DNA of 64,000 nucleotides from Octopus vulgaris (GCA_951406725.2 OX597819.1:29946001-30010000); one strand, 5' to 3'; positions 10,326-62,442 are shown, counted from the first letter of the stretch. The notes: generated from the letters alone by a model not told the origin. Numbers and translations: made by a program.

Positions 10326-13300
10326 CAAAGGCTTTTTTAAGAAAAGCAGTGACTTTGAATGAACACCGATTTCCAAACGCTGTTTGGTCTAATCGTACCT
10401 GAGTAAAAAGATTACATGATAGTGAGGTAAGCAGTGATGCAATTCAGGCAGATATGAATACTGGAATATGAATGGTGTATGGGATGTATTGAGATTAGTG
10501 GGATTATTGGTAAGGTTAGTTGTGTCCTGTATTAAGTTGTGTGTTCATGTTGAGCTATAGATGATATTTATTGATGAAAGTTGCCTCTTTATTTAATCTT
10601 TACTGTACTGAGGTATTCTGTGAACATTGATAAAAAGGGAAAATTAGGAAGTTCGGTTTAAGGTTCCTAGCACATCTTTCTATCTATTCACTGACCTGTG
10701 TCTGTCTATATTGTGAGTAGCGGGTTTGCTCCTTGTGAAGAGTTGTTCTTCGTCGGAGTGACATTCTTGTTTGGCCTGTATAGTGGTTTCTGCACCCTAA
10801 GCAGGTAATAGCATGGATTAAGTTTTCAGAGGCACCTACGACAACCATTTTTTAGACCTTAATCAGGGAAACAGAAATGTGAAATGGAACAAAATATATA
10901 TGAACAACCGAAAATAATCCATTTATCAAAGGAAATGCTCCGTACTACACAAACTAAAATTATAGCAAGAGGTTTGAAGTTTACGCCAACCCCACACAGA
11001 TCGAACCCGAATGAAATCAAGGATAACACTATGGATTTTTGCCGAAAATTACGCCTCACAGAAGCGCTTCACAACTACACCAGCGAAGATGACTCAATAG
11101 TAAAAACAAAAATGAATAATGTCCTATAAAAGGTGGAAATAAAGCACTTGATGACTTTTGTGAACACATTACTAATTATCCATTTAATACCCTACAAAAG
11201 CAACGAATTAAATCCAGCCTCAACACAAATGAATGGAAAAACCTAATCGAGTTAAAAAATGATATAAAACTGACCATTAAAGAAGTCGATAAAGGAAGTG
11301 CGGTAGTAGTGATGGACACAGACTACTACAAAAATTTAATACTCTCCATGTTGGAAAATAATATTTACTGAGAGGACAGAGCACTATATCCCACAGAAGA
11401 CACTTAAAAACTTATCCTCCTTACTACAAATACATGGAAAGGGTCTCACTAAAAAAGGAATTGACTATTTATCCAATTTTTATTTCCAGACCAAGTCTAT
11501 TCTGCAGATTACCTAAAATACACAAAATTCCAAGCCAATGCATTAATATTTCTCCCCCTACTGACCTCAAACTAAGACCCATCATTGCTGGTCCTGCTTG
11601 TGAAACCCACCGTTTGAGCAATTTCCTCGACATCTTACTCAACGCATTTTAAAAATATGTGAAAAGCTTCATCAGGGATGATTTAGACATACTTAACCAC
11701 ATCCCGACAACAATAAGTGAAGAAACCTTGTTTGCACCATTCGAACTTGTACACCAATATCCCACACGATTATGGTATCGAAGCAATCACCTTCTGGATG
11801 GAACACTACCCAGAAGAGATCCCAGGACGCATCAACCACAACTTCGTAATTGCAACACTGAAATTTATCCTACAGAACAACTATTTCATGTTCGATATAG
11901 TTTACCAGTGATTGCGAACCTTGTAATGGGTTATCTAGAACTTAAAATATACCAATCATCACAATTCTATTTAAAAGAGGTACTAAGATGATTGCATTAT
12001 ATTTTGAACGATAGCATGGACAAACTCCTCGATTTTTAAATAATACCCATCAATATCAGTAGTAACATACAATTCGCTATGGAACACAGCAATAAACAAC
12101 TTCCTTTTCTTGACATCTTAATTAAAATAGTCAATAACCACATCGAAACGGACAACTATAAACCCACAGATTCAAAAGAATACTTATTATTCAACTCATG
12201 CCACCCCATACACATAGAAATTAATATACCTAATAATCTAGTGATAAGAATCTGTACCATAGTTTCGGATACCAATACTTGTGAACGAAGACTCCTTGAA
12301 CTTAAATCAACGCTAATCAGGAGACATTATCCAACATCATTAATAAATGATGGGATTAAACGACCAAAGGAAATAGACATACAAACATTAATGGAAGTTA
12401 ACCGAAATACTAAACCAGATTTTAAAATACTCCCATACATCCCCACACATAACACTAGAAACAATGAGGGCTTCAACATCATCATCCAAAATCTACCTAA
12501 TCTCACTGGAGATAAAACAATAAACAAAATTTTAGGCTCGCACAAAATTATCAAGAGCAAAATGCAACCGAAATCATAGAAATAATATTAACCAGCGCAA
12601 GGCTATATCTATTAACAACGGAACCAAAAGTGAAAACATACGGGCGGCCTAACTGTGGCACATGCCCCAACTATTAGAGGAATACAGTTTCACTTTCATT
12701 TCAAGGTGAAATATTTAAGATAAAATCAAATTTCACCTGTGCTTCTGAAAATTTAATCCATGCTATTACCTGCTTAGGGTGCACTATACAGGAAAGCACT
12801 ATACAGGCCAAACAGCAATGTCACTCCGAGGTAGAAGAACTCTTCACAAAGAACAAATCCGCTAACCACCATATATACGGATACAGGTCAGTGGAAAAAT
12901 AGAAAGATGTGCGAGGAACCTTAAACCGAACTTCCTAATTTTCCCTTTTTATCAATGTTCACAGAGCACCTCAATACAGCAAAGATTAAATAAAGAGGCA
13001 ACTTTCATTAATAAATATCATCCACAATTCAACATGAACACGCAATTTAATACATGACATTACTAACCATACCAATAATCCAACTAATCCCCATGTACCC
13101 CATACACCATTCATATTCCAGTATTTATATCTGCCTGAATTGCATCACTTCCAGAAGTGCTTACCTCACTTGCATGTAATTTTTTCACACAAGTACTATT
13201 AGACCCAACACCTTTTGGAAATTGGCGTTCATTCAAAGTCACTGATCAGCTCTGACGATACCGTTATGACTTTGAATTTCTGTAATGATTCATAATAATG

Positions 13301-13376
13301 ATTTTTATACTTCATAATTCCACCCCAAATCATCTAATTGTATGTATATATCTTTGCTTTTCTTTAAAAAAAGCCG
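10326..13376 (+). mobile_element. Penelope-like retroelement (Neptune-like), decayed RT + GIY-YIG, with inverted 5' pseudo-LTR
   Basis: Fragments GLKFTPTP, IKEVDKGSAVVVMD, RLPKIHK, LRPIIAG, LYTNIPHDYG, ANLVMGYLE, YKPTDSKEYLLFNSCHP, PNCGTCP, CASENLIHAITC and YTGQT. 10326-10835 is a reverse-complement copy of about 12738-13376. Confidence 0.92.
13231..13277 (+). ncRNA. Degenerate minimal hammerhead ribozyme in the PLE pseudo-LTR
   Basis: Perfect 11-bp helix I (attcaaagtca / tgactttgaat) enclosing ctgatca..gatac cg tta; 2-3 changes from CUGAUGA/GAAAC..GUA. Confidence 0.55.
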
Positions 13377-13929
13377 ATATATATATATATATATACGTAA
13401 ATATAAGAGAGTTAACGTTAAGTGGTTAACTCTAGTGCTAAAAATAGCTCCTTATTCTGGTATAGCCACCGAAGTTGTTTCCACAGAAGAAATAACATTA
13501 CCTTCAACGTAAGGAAAGCGAAATACAACGAAAAGATAGATTAATGCTGAACAATTGTTCCTTTATCAACATAATATGCAATTATACTCACATATTTGTC
13601 TATAAGTCATCGGCAGCATTTGTCCTCGATACAATTTATCAGACCCTCACGGGCGATAAATATCCATGCGGTCTGACCGATTGCATACATAGTTGTGGTT
13701 TAGCTTCCCGCCAAAAGCATGCTAAGACTCACTGGAAACCAATACTGCATACAATATTTGCTGCAGCATATTTAATGTATAAATGTATATATATATACAT
13801 ATATATATATATATATATATATATATATCTATATATATATATATATATATGTATGTATGTATGTATGTATGTATGTATGTATGTATGTATGTATGTATGT
13901 ATGTATGTATGTATATGTATGTATATGTA

Positions 13930-61029: not shown

Positions 61030-61714
61030 CTTGCTTCAGTCATTAAACTAGAGGTACGCTGGGTCACCGCCATGAAGTTGAATGAATCGACCCTAGTAGT
61101 TATTCATTTAAAGCTTGGTACTTATTTTATCGATCTATTTTGTCGAACCGCTAAGTTATTGAGACATAAACCCACCAGCACCGATTGTCAAGAGGTGGTT
61201 GGGGACAAACAGAGACAGAAACACATACACACACATACGAACGCACACACACAAACACACACATATATGAGTGTCTCCCCTACTTTCCTTCTCCTGTCTG
61301 ACCCTTCTGTCCAGCACTAGTCGCCATGATAGATCGTTAGCCACTACACACATTTTTTTCTCTCCTTATTTCTCTCGTTTTTTCCGTGTACCTTTCTGTA
61401 GTAGAGCGTAGGCTCGAAACGTAAAAGACTTTTTCTATTCCTGAACGTTATACTAACACATCTGTTTGTTTCGTACACCACCTGTCTTTGCCTTTTGTTT
61501 TTTTCGTAAACTTTCCTTATATATATATATATATATATATATATATATATACGACGGGCTTCTTTCAGTTTCTGTCTACGAAATCCAGTCACAAGGCTTT
61601 GGTCAGCTCGAGGCTACAGTAGAAGACATTTGCCCAATATGCCACACAGTGAGACTGAACCTGGAACCATGTGGTTGGGAAGCAAGCCTCTTACCACACA
61701 CTCACACCTGCGCC
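61030..61714 (-). mobile_element. Diverged SINE family B with a nested insert (about 61270-61520)
   Basis: Tail at about 61030-61220 and head at 61550-61714. Part of the insert recurs at about 35913-35980. Confidence 0.75.
61392..61427 (+). ncRNA. Degenerate ultra-minimal hammerhead-like motif
   Basis: cttt ctgtagt a gagc gtag gctc GAAAC GTA aaag: helices I and II and GAAAC-GUA intact, CUGANGA box altered. Confidence 0.45.
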
Positions 61715-62048
61715 TGCTTGTTTTTGTATATTTTGTAGTTCCATTTTGGTTAATCAACAACGTGTGGAAATATAGTATAAAATCAACTTTGTCCGATACT
61801 TGATTTCTTTTCATCATCATTTTTTCTCTATCTTCTTTAGAAAAAGAAAGTCTAACATTTTAAAACTTACTATTTTAAAGGAAAGAACGGCTGTATATTG
61901 TTCAACTTTAACAGTGGGACCTACGATTATAAATGTAAGTGAGTTGGGCTCAACAATTGAGACTTGATGCTATTCAAGAAACAAGTCTGAAAACAATAGT
62001 TCTATGGTTCAAACCTTGCAAGATTTATTCAAATAAATACAAAGTAAT

Positions 62049-62442
62049 ACAGTTCTATATTTAAGAGATGAGGAATTATGTACATTACTTACATTTGACG
62101 GATATTTGTCCTCATCTTGTTTGCTGTTAACACAACGTTTCAGCTGATATACCCTCCAGCCTTCATCGGGTGTTTTAGGGAAGTTTCGAACCTGGGTTCT
62201 CATTCCTAAGCTGTTTTATTATTATTATTATTATTATTATTATTATTGTTGTTGTTGTTGTTATTATTATTTAGCTTACTGCCTGGAATAGAACTCAAAA
62301 TGTTGGGGTTAGTAGCCCGCGCTCTTAACCACTACGCCATATGCTCGTGATGAAGGCTGGAGGGTATAACAGCCGAAACGTTGTGTTAACAACAAACAAG
62401 ATGAGGACAAGTATCCATCAAATGTAAATAATGTAAATAATG
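62049..62442 (-). mobile_element. tRNA-headed, hammerhead-bearing SINE with inverted 5' partial repeat and 15-bp TSD
   Basis: TAAATACAAAGTAAT at 62034-62048 and 62443-62457; tRNA-like head 62345-62278 (A box TGGCGTAGTGG, B box GAGTTCTATTCC), (AAT/AAC)n linker, hammerhead, and inverted copy at 62348-62442. Confidence 0.85.
62129..62174 (-). ncRNA. Minimal hammerhead ribozyme
   Basis: Minus strand: aacac CCGATGA a ggctg gagggtatat cagct GAAAC GTT gtgtt; AACGTT palindrome. The inverted copy reads TGATGA a ggctg..cagcc GAAAC GTT gtgtt. Confidence 0.75.

Follow-up and report, generated by a model that had tools for sequence, protein, structure and literature searches.

Minimal type I hammerhead ribozymes have been described in the pseudo-long terminal repeats (pLTRs) of Penelope-like elements (PLEs). 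Their helix III is palindromic, an additional base follows A9, a single genome holds many heterogeneous families, solo copies predominate, and cleavage is weak and depends on dimers (PMC4209133). The retrozymes of animals are derived from pLTRs and non-coding, and eight of the nine dimers tested were uncleaved (bioRxiv 2026.07.22.740005). Partial tandems, inverted 5'-truncated partners, and a bias toward microsatellites are described for Penelope insertions (PMC8557442), and in one purified Penelope system, reverse transcription begins within the RNA, with uncleaved RNA as the main insertion substrate (PMC11167929). In Octopus vulgaris, PLEs comprise 6.83% of the genome and 190 families, according to a report whose accessible text does not mention hammerheads (PMC13282606). 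Here, we analyze ten hammerhead-like motifs, denoted s1 to s9 by repeat family, in a 64,000-nucleotide (nt) stretch of O. vulgaris DNA (GCA_951406725.2 OX597819.1:29946001-30010000; hereafter, the window, with positions counted from its first letter). Very probably, these motifs are type I hammerhead sequences in repeat ends: one follows a broken Penelope-like reverse transcriptase (RT)-endonuclease gene, the others belong to short non-coding repeats for which Penelope proteins are the likely copying machinery, and most copies are inert relics. The system, Penelope minimal hammerheads and non-LTR retrozymes, is a known one, reported in 2014 (PMC4209133) with later extensions in 2020 and 2026, and the window likely adds a cephalopod example to it. 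Given the abundance of PLEs in this genome, about ten relics in 64 kb are unsurprising.

Hammerhead motifs and the chance level

The original prediction listed nine motifs from about eight unrelated repeat families. The listed positions and strands proved correct, each being the outer helix I end of a type I motif with CUGANGA-like and GAAA-like core elements. In comparisons of masked flanks (36 pairs), 13967 and 14821 alone were related (z 54; runner-up, z 2.6), so that the eight listed families plus s9, an additional motif, make a fair count. The motifs are as follows.

13231..13277, plus strand: s1, hammerhead relic; 11-bp helix I; core at 13242 CTGATCA/GATA, two changes; helix III ACCGTT; N17 is A at 13266
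13543..13620, minus strand: s9, hammerhead-like, not among the listed sites; 7-bp helix I; core at 13613 CCGATGA/GGAA; long helix II; palindrome ACAATTGT; N17 is U at 13550; fold z -2.6
13964..14090, minus strand: s2a, hammerhead; core CTGATAA at 14082-14076, one change; 92-nt helix II region; palindrome ACGTACGT; N17 is A
14820..14887, plus strand: s2b, hammerhead; core at 14825 CTGAGGA, with GAAT replacing GAAA (one change); N17 is A
15268..15340, minus strand: s3, hammerhead with the sole perfect core; TCTTA CTGAAGA (15335), 5-bp helix II, GAA ACTGCAGT C TAAGA
23954..24001, minus strand: s4, hammerhead; core at 23995 CCGAAGA (U4C); helix III ATGC-TT-GCAT; N17 is C
49003..49065, minus strand: s5, hammerhead; core at 49059 CCGATGA (U4C); palindrome ACATGT; N17 is U
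52161..52223, plus strand: s6, hammerhead; core at 52167 CCGAAGA (U4C); helix III ACTC-A-GAGT; N17 is U; minus-strand mirror copy CCAAAGA
61392..61427, plus strand: s7, hammerhead, the weakest site; core at 61396 CTGTAGT, two changes; extra A; 4-bp helix II; GAA ACGT A
62129..62174, minus strand: s8a, hammerhead of the classic minimal form; core at 62169 CCGATGA (U4C); extra A; GAA ACGT; N17 is U
62348..62441, plus strand: s8b, inverted partner of s8a, broken within the core, which reads TGATGA

The order of core elements claimed to be common to all families is kept at all nine listed sites, but a perfect core (CUGANGA...GAAA...UH) is present at only one of these, 15268-15340(-). The other nine of the ten motifs retain the type I order with two changes (s1, s7, and s9) or one (the rest), so that the term "ribozyme-bearing" is overstated, and the repeats are mostly relic-bearing. 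Helix I spans 4-11 bp at all sites; helix II is stable in s3 and s5-s9, marginal in s4, and absent or misplaced in s1 and s2. Helix III is a perfect palindrome in s2a, s3, s5, s7, s8, and s9, has an unpaired center in s4 and s6, and deviates by one change each in s1 and s2b, with self-duplex energies ranging from -0.3 to -11.1 kcal/mol. An extra base follows A9 in s5, s7, and s8. The three-way junction was absent from every monomer minimum-energy fold. All predicted helix III strings are present, ACTGCAGT exactly, and the others need some correction: ACGTACGT occurs in 13967(-) only, with 14821(+) carrying TCGTACGT; ATGCTTGCAT is an inverted repeat around TT but an imperfect palindrome; and AACATGTT and AACGTT include A14 and N17. 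A nearer CTGATGT was rejected as the core of 13967(-), the alignment with 14821 placing the core at 14082.

Two descriptors, both written after the sites were known, were run on the window (35.6% GC, with abundant microsatellites and interspersed repeats) and on block dinucleotide shuffles of it. The strict descriptor, which tolerates a single core change and requires helices I, II, and III of at least 5, 3, and 2, respectively, yielded five matches in the window, all among the nine listed sites, compared to 410 matches over 400 shuffles without a score cut (about one per shuffle); at a score of at least 8, the shuffles gave 0.45±0.62 matches (maximum 3), and none of 60 reached five. The looser descriptor, which demands a self-complementary helix III, produced 24 window matches versus 10.1±3.4 in shuffles and, at a score of at least 6, 10 versus 1.0±1.1, a number reached by none of 100 shuffles; it picked up 13242(+), 14082(-), and the unlisted 13613(-). 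The excess over shuffled sequence that the prediction implied is thus seen at the window level with both descriptors. Looser matches at 50807(+), 7912(-), and 21641(+), and all those scoring 3 or less, were treated as chance.

With the Rfam model Hammerhead_1 (RF00163), 15267-15341(-) scored 30.6 bits (E 1.8e-5 for 801 nt searched), short of the gathering score of 34, whereas the whole-window Rfam matches, as far as listed (150 of 262), are microsatellite and hairpin look-alikes. Standard annotation therefore misses most of these motifs, detecting one of ten sites, below threshold; the annotation of the giant squid genome reports hammerheads at only 235 loci (PMC6962438). A covariance model built from seven Penelope hammerheads of other loci (excluding L036, the long helix III of which distorted the alignment) placed 62128-62175 (E 2e-4), 62341-62388 (2e-3), and 61390-61429 (0.27) at the top of 16 window matches and matched 15267-15304 partially (E 6.3). 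Base-pair counts on the seven outside motifs (82% paired vs 54%) were not used, being circular, as the motifs had been chosen for pairing.

It appears extremely improbable that most of the sites arose by chance, as matches selected by eye from repeat DNA rich in AT. Although about 10 looser matches arise per shuffled window, the descriptors were written with the sites already seen, 14825(+) (s2b) and 61396(+) (s7) pass neither descriptor, and Rfam misses most sites, the high-scoring matches exceed those in all shuffles, and independent models recover s3 and s8. Moreover, self-BLAST, run, like the flank comparison, on masked sequence, showed duplication at every listed site, which either falls within a duplicated segment, borders on one, or has a second copy of its tail at another place in the window, and other copies of s2 restore the core (see below). 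Chance is an unlikely account of the set as a whole but remains a possible one for s7 and for 34636(-). The latter (region 34615-34645) is a possible decayed hammerhead with a 9-bp helix I and CTGAAAT (two changes) that could be due to chance.

A decayed Penelope-like element and the anatomy of short repeats

Penelope membership is evident for s1, which is the tail of a full-length, decayed, autonomous-type element comprising the following features.

10885..13036, plus strand: decayed full-length Penelope-like open reading frame (ORF), RT followed by a C-terminal GIY-YIG endonuclease; many stops and frameshifts; start codon read from sequence
10347..10835, minus strand: inverted 5' partial copy of the 3' end of the s1 element, stopping at the hammerhead helix I arm (self-BLAST, 86% to 12739-13244)

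A tblastn search with RT+GIY-YIG homologs of about 750 residues produced end-to-end alignments over 10902-13033 (E 1e-136 to 1e-119), and an endonuclease remnant was found on the minus strand within 10347..10835. Pfam identified RVT_1 and GIY-YIG on a homolog of this ORF (P0009) and neither RT nor GIY-YIG on the ORF pieces from the window itself. Protein homologs come from Argonauta hians (52% identity) and oyster (40-50%), with further matches up to 61%. The s1 core lies 209 nt downstream of the end of the ORF match. In the closest homologous locus (L001), the motif is 199 nt behind the ORF, with helix III AACGTT-A versus ACCGTT-A in s1; the two share the 6-nt helix III and A17.

Altogether, a genome-contig scan yielded 53 loci with homologous ORFs (L001-L053), many of them fragments or near-identical copies. 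A sense-strand perfect-core motif is present in 8 of the 53, and 11 matches scored at least 8 (nine on the sense strand) versus 0-3 in five shuffles; a passing motif was found downstream in seven of the 16 loci with an inspected 3' region. The respective contigs, some with intact-core hammerhead motifs, are labeled as bacterial bins and likely represent host-animal DNA contaminating symbiont bins. The Penelope protein search also gave 28 metagenome and 101 viral candidates, none of which was confirmed.

A second, unrelated Penelope-like relic is located at 46500-48010(+) and consists of the C-terminal part of RT, a Cys-rich linker, and an endonuclease-like end, with an in-frame low-complexity Thr/Asn-rich insert shared with the best homolog (P0056). 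Word-based searches found no homologs of this relic, whereas the full HMMER search did, and no hammerhead was found behind it. A short RT fragment of the same clade (E 1.6e-5) lies at 49978-50097(-), upstream of the s5 unit, with a microsatellite between them.

The remaining motifs belong to short repeats.

13396..13780, minus strand: non-coding 385-nt unit holding s9, flanked by two (TA)n tracts, which alone define its ends
13929..14928, no single strand: inverted pair of one multi-copy family, with outward-facing s2a and s2b (self-BLAST); many opposite-strand joints in contigs of public runs
15096..15719, minus strand: non-coding 404-nt s3 unit as a 1.5-mer within (TA)n; the upstream partial copy retains 42-44 nt 5' of the cleavage site
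23808..24310, minus strand: s4 repeat; its tail forms a partial tandem (offset ~258 nt), and a short piece is inverted (self-BLAST, flank comparison)
38735..38910, no single strand: s4 sister fragment, a minus-strand tail joined to a plus-strand 5' half hammerhead, CTGAAGA (U4) at 38891
48822..49599, minus strand: non-coding 548-nt s5 unit, a 1.4-mer flanked by microsatellites; the partial copy upstream begins directly after the core, with 43 nt left 5' of the cleavage site
52057..52250, no single strand: near-perfect 194-nt palindrome beside (TA)n, with an outward-facing hammerhead in each arm (s6; self-BLAST)

In the s4 sister fragment, the inversion junction falls exactly at the hammerhead helix I arm, and the CTGAAGA core half is intact. 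The s3 unit (GC 0.33; longest open frame, 44 codons) is present in two copies that differ at 4 of 222 positions, and the upstream half copy has lost U16.1. Inverted partners accompany s1, s2, s6, and s8, and partial tandem ones accompany s3, s4, and s5, whereas s7 and s9 are single; the s7 tail, also found as a second copy at 35914-35978, reaches (TA)n at 61516. A (TA)n tract is at most 2 nt away for six of the 16 element ends tested and at most 30 nt away for two more, compared to 1.8% of other positions within 10 nt; the right end of s6 is not at such a tract. For sites other than s1, this insertion anatomy makes Penelope membership likely. The predicted PLE link is accordingly direct for 13231, the only site with an ORF tie, and follows from insertion anatomy for most others. 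The designation as non-autonomous PLE derivatives fits 15096-15719 and probably 48822-49599 and 13396-13780 but not 13231, the tail of a full-length element; the inverted pairs could be plain 5'-truncated Penelope insertions.

Alternatively, the short units could be SINE-like (short interspersed element-like) hammerhead carriers moved by ordinary long interspersed elements (LINEs), independently of Penelope, similar to the schistosome SM-alpha repeats. Hammerhead-bearing SINE-like repeats have been described (PMC6765202), the short units lack a Penelope coding remnant by tblastn, and segments resembling RTE- and R2/R4-type LINE remnants are present in the window (see below). However, partial tandems in the form of 1.4-1.5-mers and inverted pairs that face outward are characteristic of Penelope, the unit ends showed no poly(A) tails, and s1 is plainly Penelope-linked, making this scenario very unlikely.

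Contigs from four public sequencing runs were aligned to 13929-15725, which spans s2 and s3. Between 103 and 851 contigs per run matched, mostly less than 95% alike. Contigs on s2 and s3 were present also in the one run presumed to be RNA, which is no indication of expression. In run X1, the exact-match contigs had a depth of 33-67, whereas the summed depth was 2,000-4,800 in parts of s2 and 5,500-13,400 in most of s3, its unique middle among them. The s2 and s3 families are thus multi-copy, s3 over the whole unit, although depth is not copy number. The s3 1.5-mer junction is present in other copies as well. For the s8 family, an exact 20-nt pattern had no match in metagenome, genome, or viral contigs. 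Among the differences listed, 14077 T>C in other copies restores G8 of the s2a core (by depth, 17/17 in X6, 81.9/130.2 in X2, and 46.2/101.7 in X1).

As judged from published work, transcripts of the parent elements would undergo slow, dimer-type self-cleavage through pairing of the palindromic helices III of two neighboring copies. On the same basis, microsatellite DNA would be nicked by a Penelope RT/GIY-YIG protein, with copying of the RNA beginning internally, 30-190 nt past the cleavage site. The 1.4-1.5-mers of s3 and s5 run through an intact upstream cleavage site (42-44 and 43 nt kept, respectively), and their templates would therefore have been uncleaved or re-ligated RNA. In a transcript of such a 1.4-1.5-mer, the catalytic strand could come from the downstream copy and the substrate strand from the upstream half copy; the cores would decay after insertion. 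Cleavage by Penelope hammerheads is weak and dispensable for insertion in vitro.

Several observations weigh against assigning all these repeats to Penelope minimal hammerheads. The helix III region of s3, s4, s6, and s9 (8-10 nt) is longer than in the published minimal form, and distances of 80-1342 nt separate (TA)n tracts from the ends of s2, s4, and s8 and from that of the s1 element on its left side. A tblastn search for protein remnants gave no match in seven of 11 short regions and weak matches only in the s4, s5, and 34636 regions (E 0.001-0.05, with a small database and more than 200 queries). RT and GIY-YIG upstream on the same strand were found for s1 only; because there is no convincing protein remnant, the Penelope origin of the other families rests on anatomy. 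Even among the 16 inspected homologous 3' regions, nine had no passing motif, several of these with less than 300 nt of DNA left. Rfam gave no hammerhead match in 13150-14150, in 61300-62500, or among the 150 of 262 whole-window matches listed, and the covariance model missed the remaining listed sites, including those with long helices. Finally, random decay does not account for the skew toward one core change, which is described next.

The shared U4C change and other repeats

The U4C core (CCGANGA) occurs at five unrelated sites, s4, s5, s6, s8a, and s9. All four single-change matches to the strict descriptor carry U4C, compared to 8 of 385 single-change matches in shuffles; under simple nulls, the probability of four identical changes is ~2e-4 to 6e-4. 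U17 is found in four of the five U4C sites but is absent from all four U4 families (post hoc one-sided Fisher test, 0.04), and U17 together with U4 is common in the published minimal motifs (PMC4209133). U4C is a known natural hammerhead variant that lowers activity in vitro (PMC3088659), and CYGANGA is in use as a hammerhead descriptor (PMC13481778). The strings CCGAUGA, CCGATGA, and CCGAAGA are absent from the searchable supplement text of PMC4209133, and a literature search, which reached few subscription papers, found nothing on octopus-repeat hammerheads or Penelope U4C.

Two copies count against U4C as a family-level variant: the s4 sister fragment reads CTGAAGA, and the partner of s8a has T at this position, though right at its junction. 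At the outside loci, all perfect-core motifs have U4, and C4 is found in none of the 11 matches. CpG decay could be a route from CCGA to CTGA, with the direction not set by the window data; the window CpG observed/expected ratio is 0.83, and the second s6 arm reads CCAA. A-to-I editing was considered as another source of U4C; the symmetrical transitions in the run contigs concern other families and do not bear on it.

A joint explanation, which we consider possible but doubtful, is that unrelated Penelope-derived families converged on a weakened hammerhead (C4, mostly U17), the slower cutting of which would leave more intact RNA for insertion, and that the short non-coding families were copied from a transcript that begins within helix II of the upstream copy, so that the resulting 1.5-mers contain the minimum needed for a single dimer-type cut. 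If true at the family level, the U4C skew would allow a direct test of whether Penelope elements were selected for slower cutting.

The same skew is also compatible with the short units being active retrozymes that are transcribed, self-cut as dimers into 260-550-nt monomers, circularize, and still spread, their variant cores being tuned and functional. The recurrence of U4C at five sites and its natural occurrence elsewhere (PMC3088659, PMC13481778) fit this possibility, as does the s3 unit, which is non-coding, multi-copy at full length, and endowed with a perfect core, resembles the 350-390-bp mussel retrozymes (PMC7229834) in its 404 nt and 33% GC, and has copies with only 4 differences over 222 positions. 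However, no window locus shows a direct tandem of two complete motifs, which is how published work recognizes active retrozymes, the 1.4-1.5-mers holding one complete motif; furthermore, U16.1 is lost in the s3 upstream half copy, the core is changed in nine of ten motifs, with U4C lowering activity in vitro (PMC3088659), and sister copies of s4 and s8 have U at position 4. Ongoing activity is therefore unlikely, and we favor mostly inert, Penelope-copied relics.

Among the other repeats in the window, a high-copy SINE-like family (1934-2809, 3233-4782, 8039-8891, 41722-41972, and 55798-55926) is covered by 11-17 overlapping self-BLAST matches and is tandem in places; no passing hammerhead motif was found in these five segments. 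A long near-perfect palindrome at 37945-38136 has no hammerhead core. The segments 40493-40822(+) and 28094-28369(-) resemble what we take to be a restriction-like (R2/R4-type) LINE endonuclease and the C-terminus of an RTE-type LINE, respectively, and 53198-54381(-) presumably resembles a DNA transposase; Pfam gave only weak matches for the transposase-like segment and only weak, unrelated ones for the other two.

Comparison with known systems

Hammerheads of viroids and RNA viromes (PMC3088659; PMC13481778) share the CCGANGA core change with five window sites. These are full ribozymes outside animal genomes, whereas in the window U4C is found in minimal dimer-type motifs and may be copy-specific. 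Like PAc (Poseidon) of Anolis carolinensis (PMC11167929), for which a pLTR hammerhead, genomic ends shortly behind the cleavage site, and insertion of uncleaved RNA have been described, the window repeats combine hammerheads with ends of this kind; unlike PAc, the ORF of which starts in helix II, the s1 tail shows no similarity to its ORF start (by eye).

Animal non-LTR retrozymes (Cervera and de la Pena 2020, PMC7229834; Li, Clavereau and Pollet 2026, bioRxiv 2026.07.22.740005), with a proposed Penelope pLTR origin, are, like the window units, short, low-GC, and non-coding, with a type I hammerhead, and monomer derivatives are common among them. Instead of dimers or arrays in which two ribozymes are complete, 1.4-1.5-mers and inverted pairs are present in the window.

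The metazoan Penelope pLTR minimal hammerheads (Cervera and De la Pena 2014, PMC4209133) differ from several window sites, in which the helix III region measures 8-10 nt and helix II is long, and from the five sites with C4, which the descriptor in the accessible text of that study does not admit. The similarities are the type I order, the palindromic helix III, and the many families; the occurrence mostly as solo motifs or as opposite-strand pairs 100-700 bp apart, as in the window; the extra base after A9, found likewise in s5, s7, and s8; and the location behind an RT/GIY-YIG ORF, as in s1.

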